Assembly: GCA_039029035.1 (NCBI GenBank)
Contig: JBCCGX010000001.1
Span: forward strand, 1 to 42,557
Length of the DNA: 42,557 bases
Direction of reading: 5' to 3'
Origin: Acidobacteriota bacterium
GTDB taxonomy: Bacteria > Acidobacteriota > Thermoanaerobaculia > Multivoradales > J023
The notes beneath the pieces were generated by a model. The model was not told the DNA's origin, searched no databases, and was given only the letters and a program-made list of their open reading frames with translations. A program made the translations under genes and the position numbers. Position 1 is the stretch's first letter; each line of letters starts with the position of its first letter. Positions 5,138 to 42,557 of this stretch are shown in pieces.

Positions 5138-5186
5138 TGAGACAAGTTTGTTTCAGTTGATCTGGCTTTGTCAACTTTGTGTCTCA
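5138..5186. promoter_or_regulatory. Imperfect inverted repeat in the AT-richer divergent promoter region; candidate TetR operator
   Basis: tgagacaagtttg (5138-5150) faces caactttgtgtctca (5172-5186), whose reverse complement is tgagacacaaagttg. It lies between the divergent genes ending at 5064 and starting at 5206, in locally low G+C sequence. Confidence 0.35.
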
Positions 5187-5205
5187 ATGAGGCTAAACTC
5201 GTCCC

Positions 5206-5799
5206 ATGAAAGAGATCCGCCCTAGTTCCCGTGAAGCTCTGCTCGCTGCCGCCACCCGCATCCTGGCGGCCAACCCAGGGGCCTCGCTGGGCGATGTGGC
5301 GGCGAGAGCCGGTGTCGGTCGGGCGACGCTCTATCGGCAATTCCGATCGCGTGACGAGCTGATCCGTGAGCTGACCTTGCAAGCGATTCGAGCGACGGAC
5401 GAGGCGGTGGCACCGATTCAGCACCGCGCGGTCAGTGCGACGGAGATGTTGCACGAGGTGATCGAGGCAGTGGTGCCCCTGGGCGACCGCTACTACTTCC
5501 TTTCTCGCGAGTTCGAGGTGATGAAGGATCCGACGATCGCCCGCGAGCTCGAGCGTCAGCTGCGGGAGCTGAGCGAGCTCATCGAAGCGGTCAAGACGGA
5601 GCGTCACCTGGCACCGGAAGTGCCGACAGCCTGGATCGTCGCGACGCTCGATGCGCTGATCTATGCTGCCTGGTCGGCTCAGGACAATGGGCTCATCGCT
5701 TCGCACGATGCTGCGGCGCTGGTCCTGAGAACGCTTTTCGAAGGGCTTGGCAGTAGGGACACCACGGTCAAGAAGAAGCGCGCCGCCTTTCGCCGCTGA
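5206..5799 (+). CDS. TetR/AcrR family transcriptional regulator
   Basis: The N-terminal helix-turn-helix is typical of TetR: REALLAAATRILAANPGASLGDVAARAGVGRATLYRQFRSRDELI. Length is 197 aa. Confidence 0.85.
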   Translation: MKEIRPSSREALLAAATRILAANPGASLGDVAARAGVGRATLYRQFRSRDELIRELTLQAIRATDEAVAPIQHRAVSATEMLHEVIEAVVPLGDRYYFLSREFEVMKDPTIARELERQLRELSELIEAVKTERHLAPEVPTAWIVATLDALIYAAWSAQDNGLIASHDAAALVLRTLFEGLGSRDTTVKKKRAAFRR

Positions 5800-5997
5800 T
5801 CGACAGATGCGGCGAATTGATATACCATTCCCTCTTGACAGTCAGTCCTGCAGCCGAGTTTGATTTGCGCGAATTGGGCTGGTTACGGACCTTCCCGACC
5901 AACTCGAGGAAGATTCGACGCTGACGAGAGCCAAACGGATCTCGTGTGACGATGCCATGTCGATCGGGTCTGGCTGCTGTGGGAGGGTGGAGGTTCG

Positions 5998-7677
5998 ATG
6001 ATCGGAGCTTCGGTCAGACTCGAGTCCGCAGGCGGCTCTGGGGGTCTTGAGCCGGGTGACGAGAACAAGAGCCGGCGAGAGCTGTTGGAGGAGCTCCTTC
6101 AGGCGCGACGCAAGATCGTCGAGCTCGAAGTGCAGGCAGATTGTGGTGGCGCCGAGACCGCGCTCCAGGCCAAAGACGCCGAGCTGCAGGCAATGCTCGA
6201 CGCTTTGCCTGATCTGGTGATGCGGCTGGACCGGACCGGCCGCTTTCTCGACGTCAAGAGCCCGACGCACGAGATCCTGTCGCGTCCGGTCGAGCAAATC
6301 GTCGGCCGCAACATCTGTGACACCGGCCTACCGTTCGAAGTGGTCGCCATTCACCGGACGAGCATGGCGGAGGCACTGCGCACGCGCCAGGTTCAAACCT
6401 TCGAGTACGTTCTCGCAGTGTCGAAGGGCGTGCGTGATTTCGAAGGCCGAGCCGTGGCTTGCGGCCCCGACGAGGTGCTGTTGATTGTTCGCGACATCAC
6501 CGAAGCCAAGCAGGCACGAGCCGAGCACCGAGCCCTCGAAAGCGAGCTACACCAGGCACGTAAAATGGAGTCCATGGGTCGCCTGGCAGGCGGCGTGGCC
6601 CACAACCTGAACAACTTACTGGCGCCGATCTTCGGCTATGCCGAGATGTTGCTGGTGGATCCACCTTCGCTCGAACGCTCCCAGGACTACCTGCAAACGA
6701 TCCTGCAGGCCGCCGATGGTGCACGTGATCTGACCCGCCAACTGCTCGCTATCAGTCACAAGCAGGTACCCGAGATCCGCCGGATCGACCTGCGCCAGGT
6801 GGTCGCCGGCTTCGGCAAGATTCTGCGTCAGGCGATCCGTGAAGACATCGCCCTCGAGATTTGCCAGGGGGACCACCCGGTCATCGTCGAGGTGGATGTT
6901 TCGCAGGTCGAGCAGATTCTGCTCAACCTGGCGATCAACGCCCAGGACGCTATGCCGAACAGCGGCCGTCTGAGGATCGAGACTCGCCAGATCGAGGTGC
7001 CTGGCGAGCGGCCCGGCGAGAGCGCCAGCCGCTTCGGCGTCCTGCAAGTGAGCGATACCGGAACCGGCATCGACGAGGCCATTCGCGAGCAGATCTTCGA
7101 GCCCTTCTTCACCACCAAGGAGCCGGGTAAGGGCACCGGTCTGGGGTTGGCGACAGTCCAGGCCATCGTTCGGCAACACGGCGGCGATTTGCGGCTCCAC
7201 ACGGCGCCGGGGGAGGGCTCGAGTTTCGAGATTCTCTTGCCCTACGGCAAGGGACTGGCCGAGAGCCTGCCCGCCTCTCTGCAGCCGAGCTCGCAGCCGA
7301 TGCGAGGCGGTGACGAGACGGTTCTGGTGGCGGAGGACAACGAGATGGTCAACCGTCTGGTCTGCCGCATCCTGGGACGCTATGGCTACACCGTGCTCAC
7401 AGCCCAGAGTGGCGACGAATGCCTGCGCCTGGCCCAGAGCCATGAGGGACCGCTCCACCTGCTGCTCACCGACGTGGTCATGCCGCAGCTCAACGGTCGC
7501 GAGCTGCACGAGCAGTTGCAGTCATGGGTGCCGGACCTGCGGGTTCTCTATATGTCCGGCTATGCCGATGAGGTGATCCAGGATCACGGCGTCCTGCGGG
7601 GCGTCGCCCCGCTCATCCAGAAGCCGTTTTCGATCCCGGGGCTGCTACAGAAAGTGCGCGAGGCGCTCGTTCACTAA
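5998..7677 (+). CDS. Hybrid sensor histidine kinase (PAS - HisKA - HATPase_c - receiver)
   Basis: H-box GGVAHNLNNLLAPIFGYAEML. ATPase G-boxes DTGTGI and GKGTGLGLA. C-terminal receiver VLVAEDNEMV...LLLTDVVMPQLNG. The SD-like ggagg sits upstream of the ATG at 5998. Confidence 0.85.
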   Translation: MIGASVRLESAGGSGGLEPGDENKSRRELLEELLQARRKIVELEVQADCGGAETALQAKDAELQAMLDALPDLVMRLDRTGRFLDVKSPTHEILSRPVEQIVGRNICDTGLPFEVVAIHRTSMAEALRTRQVQTFEYVLAVSKGVRDFEGRAVACGPDEVLLIVRDITEAKQARAEHRALESELHQARKMESMGRLAGGVAHNLNNLLAPIFGYAEMLLVDPPSLERSQDYLQTILQAADGARDLTRQLLAISHKQVPEIRRIDLRQVVAGFGKILRQAIREDIALEICQGDHPVIVEVDVSQVEQILLNLAINAQDAMPNSGRLRIETRQIEVPGERPGESASRFGVLQVSDTGTGIDEAIREQIFEPFFTTKEPGKGTGLGLATVQAIVRQHGGDLRLHTAPGEGSSFEILLPYGKGLAESLPASLQPSSQPMRGGDETVLVAEDNEMVNRLVCRILGRYGYTVLTAQSGDECLRLAQSHEGPLHLLLTDVVMPQLNGRELHEQLQSWVPDLRVLYMSGYADEVIQDHGVLRGVAPLIQKPFSIPGLLQKVREALVH

Positions 7678-32075: not shown

Positions 32076-34994
32076 GTGGGAAAAATAGCTTGTTTACAGT
32101 CGTGGATCGATAGGGTACGTGGGCCCTTCGGCGTTCGCAGCCTTTCGTTTCTAGTCGGATTGTTGGTTGGTCTGGTCGGGATCCCGGCATTGGCCGACGC
32201 TGAGGACGGCGGCTTGGCGGAGCGCCAGCTCCTGGTGCGGCTGGCGCCCGAACCGGCGGCGCCGTCGCCCGAGGTTTTGATCGAAAGCGCACGGGCGAGG
32301 CAGCCTCTCACCGGCGCCTTGGCGACCGGTGAGCCTTTGGCGGTCGACTTTCTCTTGAAGCAGCGGGCGTCGGGCTCGATGCGTGCCGAGTTGGCGGTCG
32401 AGCCCGAGCGGCCGCGGGCGCGTCTCCACCGCTGGATCGTGCTCACGTACCCCGCCGCCGCCGATCTGGCGCAGATCGAGCGAGCGCTATGGACGGATCC
32501 GGGGATCGAGGCGGTGCAGCGCAACCTCCGCGGCACCTTCTCCTCGGTGACGCCGGACGACCCGCTGTTCTCGTCGCAGTGGGGGAGCGGGTCGTTGGAT
32601 CTACCGGAAGCCTGGGAGCGCACCAAGGGGCATGGCTTCGTCGGCCTCATCGATACCGGTCTCGATGTCGATCACCCCGACTTGGCGATGACCTTCGACA
32701 GCCTGGAGTTCAAAGGTGGCAATTTCAGGCCCCATCTATCGAAGGATTTCGCCCATCCCACGACCTGCGCCACCAACCCGGGCTGCGTCGACGAGGACGA
32801 ACCCGGCGATCCGACCGCATTCAGTGGTAAAGGCCATGGCACCCATGTCAGCGGCATCGTGGGCGCTACCGCCGACAACGCCACCGGCGTGGCCGGCAAT
32901 TGCTGGAACTGCAGCCTGATGATGGCTCGTTCCACGATCACCACAGCCCAGGTTGCCGATGCGCTGCGTTGGCTCGCCGATCATGGTGCTCAGACGGTCA
33001 GCATGAGCTTCGGCTGGCCGACCGTCCAGCCCGCCATTGCCGACGCGATCGACGATGTCAACGAGCGTGATCTGATCGTCGTCGCGGCGGTCGGCAACGA
33101 CCTCGAAGACATCGAGTTTCCGGCCTTCGACGACGCCGTGATCGCCGCCGGTGGCACGGAGGAGCCCATTCCCCCGGCGACCGTCGAGTTCTGGCAGCGC
33201 GACGTCTGTCCTTCGGCGCAAGGGCCTCTACTGCTGTGCGACGGCACCACCTTCACCTATTCCGGGACGACGGAATGCGGTTCCAACTACACCGTGACGC
33301 CCGGCAGCTCGATGATCGAGCTGGTGGCGCCGGCGGCCGAGGTTCTGTCCACCTTCTACCTCGGCGGATGCTGGAACCGCGGGCTCGGTTGCCACGACGA
33401 CGACCATCCGGACGACGGCTACGACTACTGCACCGGCACGTCGATGTCGTCGCCGAGCATCGCCTCGGTCGCCACGCTGGTGCGGTCGGTGAACCCCCTG
33501 CTCTCCCAGGCCGATGTGCGCAGCATCCTGCAAGCGACCGCCAGCGGCGGCGGCATGTGGGATCCGCAGCTCGGCTACGGCGTGCCGAACACCCCGGCGG
33601 CGGTGGACGAGATCCTTGGTAGAGCTGCCGGGCAGACCCTGGCCAATCGCCTGACACCGCTGTTCGTCCTCTACAGCTCACTGACCGAAGCCCACCTCGA
33701 GACCACCGTGCCACAGCGTGCCTCGGCGGCGATCGTGGCGGGCGACCAATACGATGCGGACTCCAGCCTGGCGCCGGCGATCGGCGGCTACGCCGAATAC
33801 CCCGGCCTACCTTGCATCATCGGCCCTTGCTTCCGGACGCCGGTGGCCTGGGTGTATCTCTTCAGCACCGATCGTGAGCCCTTCCCGGGCTCGCCGGATC
33901 TGACGCCGCTCTATCGGCTGAGCCGCGAGCAAGCGCTGCCGGGTAATCCCGACAACCAGAGCTTTGCCTATGCGGCCGATACGGTCGAAGTGAAACAGCT
34001 CACCGACCTCGGCTTTCAGCTCGACGGCATCGAAGGCTACCTCTACGAACCCTGCACGCCGGAGCCGAGCTGCGTGCCGGCAGGCGCTACCCGCCTGTAT
34101 CGGATGGAGCACACCATCCGCGACGACTATGTGGTGGTGCCCCTCTCCAAAGTCGGAGACTTCCAGACCCAAGGCTACGGCTTCCCGGTCGGCTTCGACG
34201 ACTGGATCGGTTACGTCTACGAGAACCTCGACGCCGACGGCGATTTCCTGATCGATGGCTTCGAGGCTCTGATCGGCACCGATGGGGCCGATTTCGACAG
34301 TGACGACGATGGCCTCAGCGACGGCCAGGAGATCTTGCAGTACCCCTACAGCGATCCTCTGGATACCGTGGCCGGCTGCAACCAGGTCTTCGCCGATAGC
34401 TTCGACAGCGGCGATTTCTCGAATTGGGACAGCACGACCGTACTCGGCAACGCCAGCTTGGCGGTCACCTCGTCGTCGGCGATGGAGGGGCCCTTCGGCA
34501 TGCAGGTTGGCGTCCAGGGTGTTGGTGATCGGGCCTTTGCGCGCGATCAGTCGCCAGCCGGCGAGTCGATCTATCGGGCTCGCTTTCTCTTCCGCTTCGA
34601 CACCAAGATGAACAACGGTGGCCTGCACCGCATCCTGGCCTTGCAGGACGCCAGTCCGGCGGCCAACGTAGTGCTGGTGCGCATGCGTAAGAGTGCCGGG
34701 CAGTTCCAGCTGAGAGCGGATACACGGCTCAACGACGGCAGCTGGAGCACCACGCCTTGGGTGACGGTGGCGGAGAAGACCCCGATCGAGATCGAGGTCC
34801 TCTGGCGTCGAGGTAACATCCTGGGGCCAGCCGGAAGTCTCGACTTCACGGTCGACGGGTTGACCCACACCATCCCACTTTTGGATAACTGGTCGTACGC
34901 GATCGACCGGGCCTTCCTCGGTCTGGTCAACGGTGTCGATGCGGGGACCGACGGGACCTATGACTTCGATGCCTTTGAATCCTGTCGCGACTGA
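32076..34994 (+). CDS. Secreted subtilisin-like serine protease (peptidase S8) with a long C-terminal extension
   Basis: Catalytic triad blocks GLIDTGLDVDHPDL (Asp), GHGTHVSGIVGA (His) and GTSMSSPSIASVATLV (Ser). Signal peptide FLVGLLVGLVGIPALADA. Ca-binding-type DADGD...DSDDDGLSDGQE. The ~200-aa tail begins VFADSFDSGDFSNW. The start codon is uncertain. Confidence 0.85.
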   Translation: MGKIACLQSWIDRVRGPFGVRSLSFLVGLLVGLVGIPALADAEDGGLAERQLLVRLAPEPAAPSPEVLIESARARQPLTGALATGEPLAVDFLLKQRASGSMRAELAVEPERPRARLHRWIVLTYPAAADLAQIERALWTDPGIEAVQRNLRGTFSSVTPDDPLFSSQWGSGSLDLPEAWERTKGHGFVGLIDTGLDVDHPDLAMTFDSLEFKGGNFRPHLSKDFAHPTTCATNPGCVDEDEPGDPTAFSGKGHGTHVSGIVGATADNATGVAGNCWNCSLMMARSTITTAQVADALRWLADHGAQTVSMSFGWPTVQPAIADAIDDVNERDLIVVAAVGNDLEDIEFPAFDDAVIAAGGTEEPIPPATVEFWQRDVCPSAQGPLLLCDGTTFTYSGTTECGSNYTVTPGSSMIELVAPAAEVLSTFYLGGCWNRGLGCHDDDHPDDGYDYCTGTSMSSPSIASVATLVRSVNPLLSQADVRSILQATASGGGMWDPQLGYGVPNTPAAVDEILGRAAGQTLANRLTPLFVLYSSLTEAHLETTVPQRASAAIVAGDQYDADSSLAPAIGGYAEYPGLPCIIGPCFRTPVAWVYLFSTDREPFPGSPDLTPLYRLSREQALPGNPDNQSFAYAADTVEVKQLTDLGFQLDGIEGYLYEPCTPEPSCVPAGATRLYRMEHTIRDDYVVVPLSKVGDFQTQGYGFPVGFDDWIGYVYENLDADGDFLIDGFEALIGTDGADFDSDDDGLSDGQEILQYPYSDPLDTVAGCNQVFADSFDSGDFSNWDSTTVLGNASLAVTSSSAMEGPFGMQVGVQGVGDRAFARDQSPAGESIYRARFLFRFDTKMNNGGLHRILALQDASPAANVVLVRMRKSAGQFQLRADTRLNDGSWSTTPWVTVAEKTPIEIEVLWRRGNILGPAGSLDFTVDGLTHTIPLLDNWSYAIDRAFLGLVNGVDAGTDGTYDFDAFESCRD

Positions 34995-35019
34995 TTCTTC
35001 GGTCGGATAGGGGCGACTC

Positions 35020-35048
35020 ACGGCCGGCTGTCTCGGGCAGCCGGCCGT
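35020..35048. terminator. Bidirectional intrinsic-terminator-like hairpin between convergent genes
   Basis: An 11-bp perfect stem acggccggctg / cagccggccgt with a 7-nt loop, lying between the stops at 34994 (+) and 35069 (-). Confidence 0.55.
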
Positions 35049-35068
35049 CGGTCGTCTCGGGCGGCGAC

Positions 35069-35389
35069 TTAGCTCGCCGAGACCGCGGTGCCGCTGACGC
35101 TGACCATCAGCATGCCGCCGGACTGGCCGACGGTTTCGTAGTCGATGTCGATGCCGACAATCGCATTGGCGCCGAGATCGGAAGCCTTTTGCTCCATCTC
35201 CTGGAAGGCGATCGAGCGGGCCTTTTGTAGCTCGCGCTCATAGGCCGCTGAGCGGCCGCCGACGATGTCGCGGATGCCGGCGAAGAAGTCTTTGAAGATA
35301 TTGGCGCCGAGAATTGCCTCGCCGGTGACCACCCCGTGGTAGCGGGTGATGGTCTGGCCGTCGATCTGGGGTGTCGTCGTCTGAATCAT
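35069..35389 (-). CDS. ybjQ: YbjQ/UPF0145 family protein
   Basis: 106 aa from [11 protein letters not shown]. Family blocks are [25 protein letters not shown] and [12 protein letters not shown]. The SD aaggag lies 9 nt upstream of the ATG at 35389. The longer ORF to 35794 looks non-coding. Confidence 0.8.
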
Positions 35390-35808
35390 GGCTCGGGGCT
35401 CCTTGAAGGTCAGGGGAGTGTATTGCTCGACGGAGCTACGCTTCGCCTGGGTGGGATATTCATCGTCTTCAGGCTGCGGGATCCGTTGCCTCGGGGCCGG
35501 TCGGGCCTGCGGGCTGCGCTGCCGCTCCGGAAACTCGCCGGGCCTGTTGCGATTTGCACAAAGCGCGGTGGCTTGAGGACTTCGAGTGACCCGACTTTGT
35601 CCCAGCTCGGACACGCTCGCGGCGTGCTCGCTCCGCAGGCCCGACCTCTCCTCGTACGTCTCCGCCGGCTGGGAGCGATGTTGGCAGTATCTGGTTACAG
35701 AATCTCTGGCGGTGTAGGATAAGTCTTGCCCATTGCCCAATGTGCCGTTGTCCTGGATCCGGTCGTCGCCGGACGACCCGTCCTGCATTCCCAACCGAGA
35801 GGTCCGTC

Positions 35809-38622
35809 ATGCGAGATCGATTCCTCCGTTGTCCCCGCTCCGTCTTCGCTCTGTGTCTGGTGCTGGTGCTGAGCGCTTCCCACGCCGGCGCCCAATCTTC
35901 GGGTGACGCGTTGTGGAGCGACGTCGACGAGTCGTCACTCGGCTTTGTCGCCAAGCGCACGATCGTTCCCGAGCGCTACCGCTCTCTGCATCTCGATCTG
36001 ACCGCGCTGGAGGGTCACCTCGCCTCGACGCCCCTCGAGGAGTCGGCTGACGTGGCGTCGCGTGGAGTCGTTCTGAGCTTGCCGATGCCGGAGGGCGGCT
36101 TCCAGCGCTTCCGCATCGTCGAGTCGCCGATCATGGCACCGGGACTGGCTGCCAAGTTTCCCGAGATCCGCACCTATAGCGGCCAGGGCATTGATGACCC
36201 GCAGGCTACGCTGCGCTTCGATGTCACGCCAGCCGGCTTCCACGGCATGATCCTGTCGCCGAGCGGCAGCGTCTACATCGATCCCTACAGCCAAGACGAC
36301 ACGCGGCACTACATGAGCTATCTGGCGCGCCACGCCAAGGGTGAGGGGCGGGTGTTCGAATGTGGCGTGCAGGGCCACGATGTCGCCCCCGGACATCGGC
36401 ATACGGTGCCCAACAAGGTCGTTTCGGGCACCACCTTGCGGACCTATCGCCTGGCGGTCGCGGCGACGGGAGAATACACCGCCTTCCATGGTGGCACCGT
36501 GGCCCAGGGCCAGGCGGCGATCGTCACCGCGATGAACCGGGTCAACGGGATCTACGAGCGTGAGGTGGCGATCCGCATGGTGCTGGTGGCGAACAACGAC
36601 CAGGTGGTCTACACCAACGGCGGCTCCGATCCCTACAGCAACGGGAGTGGTGGCGCCATGCTGGGCCAGAACCAGAGCAACCTGGACTCGGTGATCGGTA
36701 GTGCCAACTACGACATCGGCCACGTCTTCTCGACCGGCGGCGGTGGTGTCGCCTCCCTGCGGGTGCCCTGTATCAACGGCTCCAAGGCGCGCGGCGTCAC
36801 CGGTCAGCCGGCGCCGACCGGCGACCCTTTCTGGGTTGACTTCGTCGCTCACGAAATGGGCCACCAGTGGGGTGGCAACCACACCTTCAACGGTAGCTCC
36901 GGCAGCTGTGCTGGCGGCAATCGCAACGGCTCCACCGCCTACGAGCCGGGCAGTGGCTCGACCATTCAGGCCTATGCCGGGATCTGCGGAGCGCAAGATC
37001 TGCAGCCCAACAGCGATCCCTACTTCCACGGCCTCAGCCTGGACGAGATCGTCGCCTACTCGGCCAATGGCAACGGTGACAACTGCGCTGTGCGGACATC
37101 GACGGGTAACAACCCGCCGTCGGTCGACGCCGGAGCGGCCTTCACCATTCCGCTGGAGACCCCGTTCGAGCTCTGTGGCTCGGCGACCGACCCAGAGGGT
37201 GATGCCCTGACCTATGGCTGGGAGCAGTTCGATCTCGGGCCGACCGGCGCGCCGAACAGCCCGAGCGGCAACGCGCCGATCTTCCGCTCCTTCAACCCGA
37301 CGACCTCACCCTGTCGGACCTTCCCGCAGCTCAGTGATCTGCTGGCCAACACCCAGACGATCGGCGAGCTGTTGCCAACCTACGCACGGACGATGAACTT
37401 TCGTCTGACGGCGCGCGACAATCGCGCCGGCGGCGGTGGGGTGGCCGACGACGCCACCACCGTTACCGCCTCCAGCGTCGGCGGTCCGTTTCGGGTCACC
37501 GCCCCCAACACCGCAGTGACCTGGGCGGTGGGTACCTCCCAATCGGTCACCTGGAACGTCGCCGGCACCGACTTGTCGCCGATCAACTGCTCGTCGGTCG
37601 ACATCTCGCTGTCCACCGACGGCGGCTCGACCTACGGCGTCAGCCTGGCTTCCGGGGTGCCCAACTCGGGCAGTCAATCGATCACCGTGCCGGCGGCGGC
37701 GACGACCTCGGCGCGCCTCAAGGTGCAGTGCTCGAACAACATTTTCTTCGATATCTCGAACGCCGATTTCACCATCGACGGCACCTCCGGCACGCCGCCG
37801 ACGGTCAACATCAGTGCCCCCGCCGATGGCTCGTCGTCGACGGTCGGCGACTCGGTGACTTTCACCGGCACCGCCAACGATGTCGAGGACGGCAACCTCA
37901 CCGCCAGCCTGAGCTGGAGCTCGTCGATCGACGGCACGATCGGCAGCGGCGGCTCGTTCGCCACCACGGCGCTCAGCGTCGGCAGTCACACCATCACCGC
38001 TTCAGTGACCGATTCGAGCGCCCTCACCGGTTCGGATTCGATCTCGATTACGGTGCTTGGCACCGGTGGCGGCCCACAAACGGCAGTCTTCGACTCTGGC
38101 CTGGGCGTGCCAGCCTGTGCTCTCGTCGGCAGCTCGTGTGACAGCACGACGCTGCTCGTCGGCCGTGACGGCAACGGCCCCGAGCCCAACCAGCCCAACA
38201 CGCTGGACGGCTGCGCCGACGGCACGTCGGGCTCGTTCCAAGCCGACGAGTCCAACGACAGCCTCTTCGTCACCACCCTCGACGGCAGCGACATGGTGGA
38301 GGGCGCCACGGTGCGCATCGACGCCGAGGTCTGGGCCTGGACGACGCCGGCGGAGGATACCTTGGATCTCTTCTTCACCGCCGACGCCAACAACCCGAGC
38401 TGGACCCTGATCACCTCGATCACCCCGACGGTGGTCGGCCAGCAGACTCTGTCGGCGACCTACACCCCGGTTACGCACAGATCCGCCCATCAACGGAGTA
38501 TCTCTGTCATTCGCAACACGCCTATCTGGGTTTTATGTACGTGTCGGCGGAGTTTCGGGGGCAAGGCGTTAACAAAGTGCTGCTGCGGCGCCTTCTTGCA
38601 TGGTGTCGGGATGAAGGGGTAG
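35809..38622 (+). CDS. Secreted metzincin-type zinc metalloprotease (reprolysin-like), with its native 3' end lost at the compositional junction near 38470
   Basis: Signal peptide VFALCLVLVLSASHAGAQ. The extended zinc motif HEMGHQWGGNH (36850-36882) matches HExxHxxGxxH. A long beta-rich C-terminal region follows. After about 38470 the reading frame runs into foreign, lower-GC DNA and ends at a fortuitous stop. Confidence 0.75.
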   Translation: MRDRFLRCPRSVFALCLVLVLSASHAGAQSSGDALWSDVDESSLGFVAKRTIVPERYRSLHLDLTALEGHLASTPLEESADVASRGVVLSLPMPEGGFQRFRIVESPIMAPGLAAKFPEIRTYSGQGIDDPQATLRFDVTPAGFHGMILSPSGSVYIDPYSQDDTRHYMSYLARHAKGEGRVFECGVQGHDVAPGHRHTVPNKVVSGTTLRTYRLAVAATGEYTAFHGGTVAQGQAAIVTAMNRVNGIYEREVAIRMVLVANNDQVVYTNGGSDPYSNGSGGAMLGQNQSNLDSVIGSANYDIGHVFSTGGGGVASLRVPCINGSKARGVTGQPAPTGDPFWVDFVAHEMGHQWGGNHTFNGSSGSCAGGNRNGSTAYEPGSGSTIQAYAGICGAQDLQPNSDPYFHGLSLDEIVAYSANGNGDNCAVRTSTGNNPPSVDAGAAFTIPLETPFELCGSATDPEGDALTYGWEQFDLGPTGAPNSPSGNAPIFRSFNPTTSPCRTFPQLSDLLANTQTIGELLPTYARTMNFRLTARDNRAGGGGVADDATTVTASSVGGPFRVTAPNTAVTWAVGTSQSVTWNVAGTDLSPINCSSVDISLSTDGGSTYGVSLASGVPNSGSQSITVPAAATTSARLKVQCSNNIFFDISNADFTIDGTSGTPPTVNISAPADGSSSTVGDSVTFTGTANDVEDGNLTASLSWSSSIDGTIGSGGSFATTALSVGSHTITASVTDSSALTGSDSISITVLGTGGGPQTAVFDSGLGVPACALVGSSCDSTTLLVGRDGNGPEPNQPNTLDGCADGTSGSFQADESNDSLFVTTLDGSDMVEGATVRIDAEVWAWTTPAEDTLDLFFTADANNPSWTLITSITPTVVGQQTLSATYTPVTHRSAHQRSISVIRNTPIWVLCTCRRSFGGKALTKCCCGAFLHGVGMKG

Positions 38623-38726
38623 ACACGGCCTATCTGGATGTTTATTCCGAGAACAAGGCGGCGGTGAGAGCCTACGAAAAAGCCGGGTTTCAGGCCTCAA
38701 TGACAGAGATGAAGCTGCACTTGTGA
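38478..38726 (+). pseudogene. GNAT family N-acetyltransferase, C-terminal fragment only
   Basis: YLGFMYVSAEFRGQGVNKVLLRRLLAWCRDEGVDTAYLDVYSENKAAVRAYEKAGF is the acetyl-CoA-binding (R/Q-x-x-G-x-G/A) core plus the C-terminus. The N-terminal ~90 aa of a normal GNAT are absent because the frame begins at the junction. Confidence 0.7.
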
Positions 38727-38775
38727 CAGGAAAAGCGGCAAGAGTGTTACTAACCAATAGGGAGTTGACCAGGCT

Positions 38776-39378
38776 ATGAGTGGATTGCACAAGATGTTTC
38801 TACTGGCGGCGATGCTGTTTGTGTTCGGTTGCGACACGTCAGAACCCGCGAAAGAATCGCAGGCTGCAACTGCTGTTGCCGAGCAAGTGGCTGATTTTCC
38901 ACTGGTGTTTCGCCGTACCACTTTGATTGTTCGGGATGTTGAGGCGTCGCTGGCGTTGTATCGCGATGCGCTTGGGATGGAGGTTATCTACGACAACATA
39001 ATTCGCAGGCCACACCCGACAGAAGACAGGGAACGACAAATACGTTTGGTGTTCCTGAAGGCAACGCATAATTTCTATGGCGTACTGGGTTTGGTCGATT
39101 ATGAATACCAAAACCCGGATGCACCTGAGAAGCCGGTGCGCAAAGAAGGCTTTACGCCTCAGAATGTGGTCCTTGTTTTCAATTCGGAAAAACTTGAGGC
39201 GCAATTTCAACAAATTCGTTCAACGCCCGGCGTAGAAATATTGACGGAGCCGAAGCTCACCGAGTATCCGTCCTACGATGGCACGGAGATATTGCGCGTG
39301 ATGGTGAGCAAGTTCTACGATCCGGATGGCTTTCTGGTGGAGCTAAACAGGTTGTTAGACCCGATAAAGCCTGAGTAG
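38776..39378 (+). CDS. VOC (glyoxalase/bleomycin-resistance/dioxygenase) superfamily lipoprotein
   Basis: Lipobox-like LFVFGC. VOC blocks RRTTLIVRDVEASLALYRDALGMEV and FYDPDGFLVELN. Confidence 0.7.
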   Translation: MSGLHKMFLLAAMLFVFGCDTSEPAKESQAATAVAEQVADFPLVFRRTTLIVRDVEASLALYRDALGMEVIYDNIIRRPHPTEDRERQIRLVFLKATHNFYGVLGLVDYEYQNPDAPEKPVRKEGFTPQNVVLVFNSEKLEAQFQQIRSTPGVEILTEPKLTEYPSYDGTEILRVMVSKFYDPDGFLVELNRLLDPIKPE

Positions 39379-39445
39379 GCGTTTTGCGCCTATGTGCCAT
39401 GTTCGTGCTAAATTGTTTTTCAAAATCTAAAGGGGAGTAATCAGA

Positions 39446-39871
39446 ATGAGTCCAACTATAAAAAATATTCTGGCTGTAATTCTTGGTATTGTGATCGGCG
39501 GCGGAATCAACATGCTTATTGTGACGTATGGCGGTGCTGTTGTTCCGGCACCGGAGGGCGTCGATCCTTCCGATGTCGAGAGCATTAAGGCAAACCTACA
39601 TTTGTATGAGGCCAAGCACTTTGCCGTGCCATTTCTTGCACATGCGCTAGGTACCCTGGTAGGGGCGATTGTCGCCTTTATGCTGGCAGCAAACCGTAAG
39701 GCGATGTGCGCCTACATAATTGGTGTTGTGTTCTTGTTAGGCGGAATCGCCATGGCTGTCATGCTTCAGGGGCCCGTCTGGTTCATCTCTCTGGATGTTT
39801 TGGTTGCGTACATTCCCATGGCCTGGCTGGGCGCAAAAATTGGGGGTGGCTTACAAGGTGGCAATCAGTAA
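39446..39871 (+). CDS. Hypothetical small integral membrane protein
   Basis: 141 aa with about four hydrophobic segments. The good SD aaagggga sits upstream of the ATG. I recognise no family. Confidence 0.6.
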   Translation: MSPTIKNILAVILGIVIGGGINMLIVTYGGAVVPAPEGVDPSDVESIKANLHLYEAKHFAVPFLAHALGTLVGAIVAFMLAANRKAMCAYIIGVVFLLGGIAMAVMLQGPVWFISLDVLVAYIPMAWLGAKIGGGLQGGNQ

Positions 39872-39915
39872 GCATACTGCCTTGTCGTACAGACAATAAT
39901 TTGAAGGAATCCGTT

Positions 39916-40518
39916 ATGTTGCGCTGGCTTTTGCTTGCCTTTGTGTGTGTCTCCAGTATGGCGTGTGCCAGTACTGCAGAGGAGACCTGCATGAACTCAC
40001 CGTCGCAGACGCTTTATCTGAGCGATGGGCGCTACGAATGTAGAGAGGCTGCCAATGCCTGCGAGGAGGGTTTCGTGCAGGCGACGTCCACCGAAGAGTC
40101 CTGCAGTGCGAAGACCGGCTGTCAGTACGAGCCTGGACGTTGTTATTGCCCCTTCTACAAAGGGGTTCAGTGTATTTGTGCGATGGGTCCACCCCCGACG
40201 TGCGGCGCGGTAGCGCAGCACGGCGATGTGCGCGAAGAGCCAAATCTGCAAGCCTGGGATGAGCCCGGCAAGGCCTGGTTGGGTATGGAGGCTTTCTGGC
40301 AGGCGTACACGCAGCGCAATGGCGGACTGACCTGGGAGCGTAGCGCTGAGTACCCTGAGTACTCGAAAGTGAAAGAGCACGACACCTTCCTGGTTCAGCT
40401 ACCGCAAGGCGTGTGTCTGATGGAGTTTTTCCACACGCGCTGGCGCAGGGCCAACGACGTGCGTCGCTGGAACCCTGCCTTTAACGAGTACGGTGGCTGT
40501 CCTTATGTGTTCGACTAG
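39916..40518 (+). CDS. Hypothetical secreted cysteine-rich protein
   Basis: ATG at 39916 with the SD gaagga. Signal peptide MLRWLLLAFVCVSSMACA. Many Cys occur in the first ~100 mature residues, followed by a Trp/aromatic-rich C-terminal half. I recognise no family. Confidence 0.6.
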   Translation: MLRWLLLAFVCVSSMACASTAEETCMNSPSQTLYLSDGRYECREAANACEEGFVQATSTEESCSAKTGCQYEPGRCYCPFYKGVQCICAMGPPPTCGAVAQHGDVREEPNLQAWDEPGKAWLGMEAFWQAYTQRNGGLTWERSAEYPEYSKVKEHDTFLVQLPQGVCLMEFFHTRWRRANDVRRWNPAFNEYGGCPYVFD

Positions 40519-40539
40519 TCTTTTGCTGAGTATTCGTTA

Positions 40540-40914
40540 ATGGCCGAGCTTCGTCGATTCGATGCAACGAAATTCAGTTGCGATATTTTTGGTGACTTTT
40601 CCATGCAACCGCGGGAGTTTTTGCCCGGACCACCTGTCAGGAAAGACAGCGTTAACGTTGGCATTATCACGATGACCGAAAACGCGCCGCATGGCGGCGA
40701 GGTGCATCCGGATGGTGATGAATTTTTGTACGTGATCTCCGGCCGTTTGCGGGTCAGCGGCGATAATCTGGGTGACATTGAGTTAGGCCCGGGTGAGGGT
40801 TGTATTGTGCCGCAGGGCGAATGGCATAAAGTTGACGTGCTGGAAGTTACGCAATTGATTTATATGACGCCTGGTCCTAACGGCGACCACCGGCCGTTGC
40901 CGGATGCCGAGTAG
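40540..40914 (+). CDS. Cupin domain protein
   Basis: GGEVHPDGDEFLYVISGRL (cupin motif 1) and GEGCIVPQGEWHKV (motif 2). Length 124 aa. Confidence 0.7.
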   Translation: MAELRRFDATKFSCDIFGDFSMQPREFLPGPPVRKDSVNVGIITMTENAPHGGEVHPDGDEFLYVISGRLRVSGDNLGDIELGPGEGCIVPQGEWHKVDVLEVTQLIYMTPGPNGDHRPLPDAE

Positions 40915-41203
40915 GCAGTACTCAATGACTGGCTCACCAAAACGTCTGAAGATGCCTCTGTGGATGCATGGCTTCGATGCGGTCTGTTTTCTCGTGGCAG
41001 GGCTTTGCATGATTGCCTATGTTGGTAAGGATAAAGGAGGCGTTCCTGCCTGGATTCCAGACTGGAGCCTGATTCCGGAACATCCTGTGCCTATTGGTCT
41101 GACCGCCATGTTTCTGGGCAGCATTCCGCAGATGTTGTATGCCGCAAGGGCAATGGCTGCGCGCCGTGCACAGATGCATCAAGGCGCCCCTCGCGACGAT
41201 TAA
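40904..41203 (+). CDS. Hypothetical small membrane protein
   Basis: Two hydrophobic segments (FDAVCFLVAGLCMIAYV and PIGLTAMFLGSIPQMLYAA). The start is uncertain (ATG at 40904, 40925 or 40952). No clear SD. Confidence 0.45.
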   Translation: MPSRQYSMTGSPKRLKMPLWMHGFDAVCFLVAGLCMIAYVGKDKGGVPAWIPDWSLIPEHPVPIGLTAMFLGSIPQMLYAARAMAARRAQMHQGAPRDD

Positions 41204-41337
41204 TCCGCATATAGACGCAAACTGGACAAATGGTGCCAGTGCTACTCCTGCGGTGACAGAAAAATCCGGTATTTGCTAAGCTCTGCAGCGCAGCAAACAA
41301 GGCCTGTTTGCGACTTGTTATCTAAGGAGAGCTTCAC

Positions 41338-42177
41338 GTGAATGCTAAATTTGCAGGTCTGGCGTCGGTCGCGTTAGTTTTTTCAGCTTGTTCGAAAAGC
41401 CCTGACTCCGATTCAGCGCCGGCGCCCGAGCCGGAGGCCAAAACTGTCGCTGCATCGGCGCCTGATTTGTGTCTGGATGCAGGTCCGCAAACGCCGCGCG
41501 ATATCTCCAGCAAAGTTGGATTGAACACCGTGAGTTTTGAAAAAGCGCCGGCGGCGTCTGAGTTGAATCTTTGCAATATTCACACGCATACCAACGCAGA
41601 GCACAAAGGCCCCGGCTACAGCACCTTTGTTAACAACACAGACAGTGGTGGTTATGCCTGTAACGATACGGCCAGCTTGAGTGATGCCGAAAAAGCGCCT
41701 CTCGACGGTGCATTCAAAGGGGCAAAGCCGGGTGACACCATTGAGGTGCATTGGGTGCACACAAGCTGCGACATAACGCCAGGCGAGGGCCTAGGTTCGT
41801 GCCTGAGCGACACCTGCACCGACCCGCTACTTCGAGTTGAGGCGCAAACTTTCCTGGTGGTCAATGATTCTTCAGCACTGGATTTCACCGACTTTGCCTA
41901 TCAGGGCAATGTGATTGGTGGAAAACACCAGGCGATGGCTCTGCCCTCTGGCACCGGCACACCGGTTGAGTTTTTAGGCTCGACGACCGGGCCAAGTTAC
42001 ACCCAATCCAAGTGCTCGCCGATGAAGGTAACCTGGAGTGTACGACCTCAGTGCGCGAAGCTCGATATCAGTTCTTTGCATCGCTGGGCCGAAAGCGGCA
42101 ACGTCTTTAACGAGACGAAGTCGCACGGTGTTCGGCAATTGGTTACGGCGCCAGAGTTGCTCTCGCCCATCGAGTAG
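41338..42177 (+). CDS. Lipoprotein with carbonic-anhydrase-like histidine motifs (possible delta-class / CA_like family)
   Basis: GTG start with the SD aaggaga. Lipobox LVFSAC. GPQTPRDIS resembles the alpha-CA QSPI(D/N)I block. NIHTHTNAEHKG and IEVHWVHTS resemble the HxH and second-His zinc-ligand blocks. The family assignment is from memory only. Confidence 0.45.
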   Translation: MNAKFAGLASVALVFSACSKSPDSDSAPAPEPEAKTVAASAPDLCLDAGPQTPRDISSKVGLNTVSFEKAPAASELNLCNIHTHTNAEHKGPGYSTFVNNTDSGGYACNDTASLSDAEKAPLDGAFKGAKPGDTIEVHWVHTSCDITPGEGLGSCLSDTCTDPLLRVEAQTFLVVNDSSALDFTDFAYQGNVIGGKHQAMALPSGTGTPVEFLGSTTGPSYTQSKCSPMKVTWSVRPQCAKLDISSLHRWAESGNVFNETKSHGVRQLVTAPELLSPIE

Positions 42178-42242
42178 TCGCGAATAGTTGATGAGCTTCG
42201 GTGTGATAAAGTCACCGTACTTGTCCACCGGAGCTCTCAGCG

Positions 42243-42509
42243 ATGCCTGCATTTACCTCGCGCCATGCTCTTGCGCTGCTCGCGCTTACCGTTTGCCAGC
42301 TGCTGACGCGGGTGAGCTTCGCCGGTAAAGGTGCGGTCTATTCTCTCGGCGTGGTGGTCAATCAAACCTTAACTTTCCTGTCAGTCGCGCTGAGTTACCT
42401 CCCAGGTCTTGCCGGCATAGTTATTGCGACTGCCGTCGGAGTCTCGTTGGGTCAGCGGTTTTATTCTGCACAAGTTAGCTCGCAGGGCCAGGACTCTACG
42501 CATGTCTGA
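42243..42509 (+). CDS. Hypothetical small membrane protein
   Basis: 88 aa with two or three hydrophobic segments. Its stop overlaps the next ATG (ATGTCTGA), suggesting translational coupling. Confidence 0.45.
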   Translation: MPAFTSRHALALLALTVCQLLTRVSFAGKGAVYSLGVVVNQTLTFLSVALSYLPGLAGIVIATAVGVSLGQRFYSAQVSSQGQDSTHV

Positions 42510-42557
42510 AATAAAGTTTGCAGCGGAAGAAAAAAAGATACTGGTCGCCCGTATTCA
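42502..42557 (+). CDS. 5' end of an ORF running off the window (MSEIKFAAEEKKILVARI...), possibly DUF2164-like
   Basis: ATG at 42502 overlaps the preceding stop. Only 18 codons are visible, and the family guess rests on a weak recollection of similar N-termini. Confidence 0.3.
   Translation, partial: MSEIKFAAEEKKILVARI

Follow-up and report, generated by a model that had tools for sequence, protein, structure and literature searches.

Truncated genes and the junction between them

The stretch of DNA analysed here (the window, 42,557 bases) makes up the whole of contig C1, which belongs to a fragmented MAG of 10.6 Mb in 1696 contigs (N50 8.3 kb, mean G+C 0.651) with a completeness of 85% and a marker-based contamination of 4.5%. 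Bases 35740–38467 of the forward strand encode residues 1–909 of a secreted metzincin of the reprolysin-like (M12B) type, which has PKD/Ig-like domains (Pfam Reprolysin_4/2/5/3 and PKD). The gene is native to the 65% G+C MAG and is cut mid-domain at 38467. Its open reading frame, 35740–38622, has 960 codons, and homology to relatives ends at residue 909 (...ATYT). The last 51 codons (38468–38622, forward strand) are a spurious end, produced by out-of-frame read-through of a GNAT acetyltransferase fragment that lies on the other side of the cut.

Homologues of the metzincin go on beyond this point. Two congeneric orthologues, 74% identical over residues 24–909 (G001:C29) and 73% identical over residues 13–909 (G003:C147), extend past the cut by 148 and 178 residues, respectively, until their own contigs end, as shown by tblastn. 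Both extensions are homologous to a further copy in the same MAG, on contig C1102, which continues for 549 residues beyond the cut and then reaches a stop. A preliminary description of this DNA had proposed that the metzincin is truncated and runs into a fortuitous stop at 38622, and had pointed out that the proposal would be weakened if full-length homologues ended naturally here. They do not, as the extensions of 148–549 residues show, and the truncation stands. The true C-terminus of the metzincin is likely to be that on C1102 or on an allele of it; the native 593-aa C-terminal part on C1102 gave no Pfam match.

The stretch just before the cut (38063–38467, forward strand) is part of a multi-copy C-terminal domain, of which the MAG has at least five copies. 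A search of the MAG with bases 38300–38700 of the window as the query returned four further copies of the left-hand sequence, on C105, on C1102 and twice on C587, and all of the alignments stop at 38467. The C105 copy is 96% identical to the window over 168 nt and 90% over 405 nt, the two C587 copies are 77–78% identical, and C1102 matches bases 38335–38467 at 98.5% over 133 nt. All four continue in frame as '...ATYT LPAGALQAVRAQFRYQ...', where the window has unrelated sequence.

To the right of the cut lies a foreign tail of 4.09 kb (38468–42557, forward strand; 53.5% G+C), which reaches the end of the contig. It opens with the 3′ fragment of the GNAT acetyltransferase gene (38469–38726, forward strand; Pfam Acetyltransf_1), which comprises residues 58–143 of 143 and the stop codon, and has no start of its own. 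The fragment covers positions 48–116 of the 116-position Acetyltransf_1 profile, so the gene does begin mid-domain, as had been described; its N-terminal loss, put at about 90 residues, is in fact 57 of 143. Full-length homologues of 143–150 aa occur on three foreign contigs (L010, L011 and L012; 143 aa on the first two), with 86% identity to that on L010. The fragment is followed by a VOC/glyoxalase gene (38776–39378), a 141-aa membrane protein (39446–39871), a 200-aa Cys-rich protein (39913–40518), a cupin (40540–40914), a 99-aa open reading frame (40904–41203), a delta-carbonic anhydrase (41338–42177) and an 88-aa open reading frame (42243–42509). After this comes the start of a DUF2164 gene, which runs off the contig.

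The junction itself is blunt. It falls at 38467/38468, where homology to the left-hand source stops and homology to the right-hand source starts, with about 1 nt common to both. Just as the four native copies all stop matching at 38467, the alignments of the three foreign contigs to the window all start there. Beyond this point, each source matches the window no better than expected by chance (18/60 and 12/60). An in-silico join through a shared k-mer was considered and was rejected on this chance-level identity of the flanks.

Composition and source of the tail

The sliding G+C profile falls from 0.65–0.67 to 0.48–0.60 across 38200–38800. G+C content is 0.650 in the 38467 bases on the left and 0.535 in the 4090 bases on the right, and the latter value is lower than that of every other 4.09-kb window in the MAG (n = 2856; mean 0.649, sd 0.020). 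A two-segment likelihood analysis placed the change point after base 38488 (LLR 103.5), and GC3 is 0.84 in the metzincin compared to 0.54–0.69 in the tail genes. Comparing the tetranucleotide signatures of the two sides, as had been suggested, showed the tail to be an outlier: it lies 0.056 from the MAG mean (z = 8.1), while 500 random MAG windows gave 0.020 ± 0.004 with a maximum of 0.045, so that none of the 500 was as far away. The tail lies at a distance of only 0.023 from the non-homologous parts of L010, which is an ordinary within-genome value. The composition break is genuine and far beyond chance. The G+C profile, the change point and the homology edges at 38467/38468 together bear out the abrupt compositional breakpoint that was first noticed in the letters of the sequence.

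The foreign contigs were reached through a homologue that is 91% identical to the tail glyoxalase. L010 and L011 come from the NCBI assemblies GCA_041156825.1 and GCA_041156885.1, and L012 from the Logan assembly of ERR13828567; the accessions of these contigs turned up nothing in a literature search. All three contigs have about 52% G+C and a Gammaproteobacteria-like context. On L010 (16 kb, G+C 0.518), the order is a full GNAT gene, the VOC/glyoxalase, the 141-aa membrane protein, the 200-aa protein, the cupin, a small open reading frame, the delta-carbonic anhydrase and DUF2164; more small genes precede this shared block and other genes come after it. The seven tail genes keep one order on all three contigs, each of which also has the intact GNAT gene and genes upstream of it. 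The tail is fully colinear with L010 and L011, with 83% nucleotide identity over 3.8 kb from 38467 on, and each of its seven genes is 86–97% identical in amino acids to the L010 counterpart. An acyl-CoA dehydrogenase on L010 groups with those of Lentisalinibacter, Woeseiaceae and other Gammaproteobacteria or 'Pseudomonadota' MAGs (65–69%).

No orthologue of the tail glyoxalase was found in 40 relatives of the MAG, where the best match was 33%; among GTDB species representatives, the named taxa closest to it are marine Bacteroidota and Gammaproteobacteria (up to 66%). The tail genes were likewise not found in four congeneric genomes, except for a distant homologue of the delta-carbonic anhydrase (48–68%). 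One oddity concerns this enzyme: its homologues in relatives of the MAG reach 82% amino-acid identity (in G017), with the L010 copy being closer at 92.5%. Exact-protein look-ups for the tail glyoxalase and delta-carbonic anhydrase returned no other record. Protein-guided scans of metagenome and GTDB genome collections returned relatives at up to 70% identity and no copy of the tail in its native setting from the same strain. A native copy with 100% identity was not found in public data, so that relatives at 83% nucleotide identity are the only evidence that the donor exists independently.

Bases 1–38467 most likely come from the organism that the MAG represents, an Acidobacteriota-type bacterium with a large genome of 65% G+C. 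For a conserved left-side gene, a methionine gamma-lyase-like protein, the closest relative with a phylum name is from an Acidobacteriota MAG (81%). The most likely source of the tail, judged from its sequence, is a different organism of about 52% G+C, close to the source of L010 and L011, whose gene neighbours look gammaproteobacterial. A separate taxonomic comparison of the two sides, one of the checks that had been proposed, gave Acidobacteriota on the left and, in the L010 context, Gammaproteobacteria on the right. By composition, gene content and named homologues, the flanks are therefore assigned to different phyla. Each flank is found uninterrupted elsewhere, the right-hand one in contexts that are 83%-nucleotide relatives and not the same strain.

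These data also bear on whether there is any foreign join at all. The tail might be a native low-G+C island, or the site an ordinary gene boundary at which the metzincin simply ends and the GNAT gene simply begins. Other contigs of the MAG, such as C85 and C20, do have internal low-G+C stretches with normal DNA on both sides, and the homologues of the delta-carbonic anhydrase in relatives would suit a native block. Yet orthologues and paralogues of the metzincin extend 148–549 residues past the point, the GNAT gene is without 57 of its 143 residues and its own start codon, the tetranucleotides of the tail lie beyond those of every sampled MAG window, and the glyoxalase has no orthologue among the 40 relatives. 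The site also lacks a tRNA, an integrase and repeats (see below). We consider this explanation highly improbable, and the full-length homologues of both genes effectively refute it.

Island hallmarks and end-joining capture

The preliminary description saw no tRNA, integrase or repeats at the boundary, and on this basis argued against a classical island insertion. Dedicated searches agree on both counts. No tRNA was found in 34000–42557, direct and inverted repeats were limited to short ones at chance level with none at the boundary, and no integrase or transposase domain (Pfam) was present in the tail open reading frames. The tail resembles a classical genomic island in its abrupt G+C drop and its block of accessory-type genes. 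However, classical islands have a tRNA, an integrase and flanking direct repeats, all of which are absent here, where both boundary genes are instead cut mid-domain. A further difference is that the block represents only part of a more extensive syntenic region, which another organism carries.

The same description left two explanations side by side, a mis-join of sequences from two organisms and a real illegitimate recombination. In the latter, an Acidobacteriota-type strain would have captured gammaproteobacterium-like DNA, 4 kb or more, by end-joining at a double-strand break in a dispensable metzincin paralogue. We regard this as unlikely; equally doubtful is its corollary, that both genes were truncated in a living strain by an event too recent for compositional amelioration. 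Given the several paralogues of the metzincin, a strain could tolerate losing it. The join, too, has the form that capture by NHEJ or illegitimate recombination takes in bacteria: it is blunt, such captures having 0–2 nt of microhomology, it has no mobile-element hallmarks, and the target gene is truncated. End-joining leaves blunt joins of this type, with microhomology of about 1 nt. This agreement does not discriminate, since in vitro ligation chimeras look alike: end-joining in a strain would leave a sequence identical to that of a blunt-ligation chimera made in vitro.

NHEJ capture is expected to leave two junctions, at full genomic depth, whereas there is one junction here, on a tail that reaches the contig end at 42557. 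No second junction back to host DNA was found, and within the bin L010-like DNA is confined to this contig; a second junction lying in unassembled or unbinned sequence would have escaped the search. Capture from outside the lineage also has to be set against the four congeneric genomes, from which the tail genes are missing apart from the 48–68% delta-carbonic anhydrase homologue. Finally, a 30-mer spanning the junction had no exact match in JGI metagenome contigs; near-identical copies of the flanks are likewise absent from that collection.

Assembly context of the join

The contig ends of the MAG carry a record of how it was assembled. Among 3392 ends, exact terminal overlaps of 141 nt occur at 1563, of 119 nt at 32 and of 99 nt at 14. 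We read this pattern of 141, 119 and 99 nt as the mark of MEGAHIT run with its default series of k-mer sizes, and from this overlap spectrum we infer that MEGAHIT was the assembler.

One such overlap lies next to the junction. Bases 38335–38453 (forward strand) are identical to the first 119 bases of C1102, and mark a branch node of the assembly graph. An exact 119-nt overlap implies that C1102 was a graph neighbour of C1 and lost this connection at the final k. The join lies 14 nt beyond the end of this overlap, within the multi-copy domain, and 2 of these last 14 bases before the join differ between the window and C1102. The orthologous contigs of two other MAGs likewise break within the continuation of the metzincin gene. 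Sites of this kind are where assemblers run into dead ends. Random insertion of foreign DNA does not predict that the join should fall 14 nt past a branch node in a repeat, and this coincidence is a point against recombination in a cell.

C1 itself is unbroken and unbranched through the junction, so that the assembly contains no native alternative for how this exact allele continues. The absence of a rival native path is what a real recombination joint would give; in a low-coverage, strain-mixed population, however, it fits an artefact and a real join alike. With about 1 nt shared by the two sources, a de Bruijn graph at k = 141 needs real k-mers that span the junction, so that at least one sequenced molecule probably carried the join. 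The existence of such k-mers is again in keeping with recombination in a strain.

A second mid-gene join in the same MAG is harder to reconcile with biology. On contig C463, an RND-pump gene (72% G+C) loses homology at about base 5148, beyond which there are 2.4 kb of 45% G+C DNA whose longest open reading frame is at most 113 aa. The orthologue of this gene in G002 stays open for more than 480 codons further. C463 is a second chimera of the same kind in this MAG, and a join of a pump gene to such ORF-poor DNA is implausible as a cellular event.

We conclude that the window is most likely an inter-genome chimeric contig, the join having been made during library preparation or assembly and not in a cell. 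Of the two origins first offered, the evidence favours the mis-join, because the MAG has a second chimera, a branch node lies 14 nt away, the tail occupies the end of the contig, and chimeras have a high base rate in MEGAHIT MAGs. Against it stand the following points: the sources share only about 1 nt, there is no branch at the junction, and the donor is known through 83%-nucleotide relatives.

How could such a contig arise? The left-hand contig would enter the multi-copy, strain-variable C-terminal domain of the metzincin, where the de Bruijn graph would branch. The native path, now C1102, would become disconnected and leave a dead end, which a few junction-spanning k-mers could then connect to the foreign contig. 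The most plausible source of these k-mers would be a chimera among the library fragments, sequenced from each end, or else a spurious extension step. A library chimera formed by blunt ligation would be enough, as two overlapping mates reading it would satisfy a minimum k-mer count of two. In binning, the 4.1-kb tail would then follow the 38 kb of native sequence.

Inter-genome chimeric contigs in short-read metagenomes are a problem tackled by metaMIC, DeepMAsED, ResMiCo, GUNC and DeepMM (bioRxiv 10.64898/2026.10.15.759294). The window resembles known cases in that its flanks differ in taxonomy and composition, genes are cut at the join, and the assembly is MEGAHIT-like. As in those cases, the minor foreign part enters the bin because binners assign whole contigs, and the marker-based contamination is modest (4.5%) despite the defect. 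It differs from them in one respect. Chimeric contigs usually form through a shared repeat or conserved k-mer, while the two sources here have about 1 nt in common; without a shared repeat at the junction, the join calls for a chimeric library fragment or an error in local extension. From NHEJ captures, the window differs in that its junction adjoins a branch of the assembly graph and that the assembly contains a further obvious chimera.

The finding matters as quality control. Bases 38468–42557 should be trimmed from the MAG, and the 960-aa 'metzincin' open reading frame, which joins a truncated gene to a nonsense tail, needs to be labelled as partial. The GNAT fragment, the VOC/glyoxalase, the small envelope proteins, the cupin and the delta-carbonic anhydrase are not attributable to the Acidobacteriota-type MAG, and should be assigned instead to a gammaproteobacterium-like relative of the organism from which L010 derives. 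Given at least one further chimera (C463), the marker-based contamination figure understates the problem. Were the join true after all, it would offer a modestly interesting snapshot of inter-phylum DNA capture without a mobile element, with the insert wholly unameliorated. As a separate observation on the same MAG, composition shifts similar to these at the 3′ end of C480 and the 5′ end of C392 make the two contigs further candidates.

Gene content of the foreign tail

The delta-carbonic anhydrase gene of the foreign tail (window 41338-42177) has homologues at loci L007, L008 and L009. The encoded protein shared 82% and 75% amino-acid identity with its counterparts in two relatives of the Acidobacteriota-type MAG (G017 and G024, respectively), and the relatives' homologues sit on DNA of 60-65% G+C. 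No homologues of the remaining tail were found in relatives of the MAG. That the delta-carbonic anhydrase is alone in the tail in having them hints that this family moves between, or is common to, the Acidobacteriota-type and tail lineages.

Compared with L010, a foreign contig colinear with it, the tail has about 274 nt of additional sequence (window 42213-42497) separating the delta-carbonic anhydrase gene from DUF2164. This segment holds an 88-aa hydrophobic ORF (42243-42509).

Further chimeric and candidate chimeric ends in the MAG

A second chimeric join in the MAG (G000) lies on contig C463 (about 5148-7635, locus L067). Here, an RND (AcrB-family) pump gene of 72% G+C is interrupted mid-gene at about 5148 and joined to 2.4 kb of 45% G+C DNA. 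This low-G+C part contains no ORFs longer than 113 aa, and is possibly eukaryotic or non-coding DNA. Sharp terminal drops in G+C also occur in contigs C480 (to 0.43, about 6616-7440, locus L069) and C392 (to 0.52, 1 to about 1922, locus L070), and these ends are candidates for additional chimeric tails.

The metzincin family and its upstream repeat

The native C-terminus of the metzincin family was found on G000 contig C1102 (1-1779, locus L068), and likewise on C105 and C587. In it, Cys-rich 'CDDG-FCNG-E-C' repeats precede a pair of similar domains, each of about 150 aa. This C-terminus is present in several paralogues; on C1102, it had no Pfam matches. Contigs of the congeneric genomes G001 and G003 likewise break inside the continuation of the gene.

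A repeat of about 150 nt (window 35498-35650) lies in the long intergenic stretch preceding the metzincin gene and resembles a dispersed element of the REP or MITE type. BLAST returned 59 matches within G000 and many more in G003, at about 82-89% over cores of 45-55 nt.
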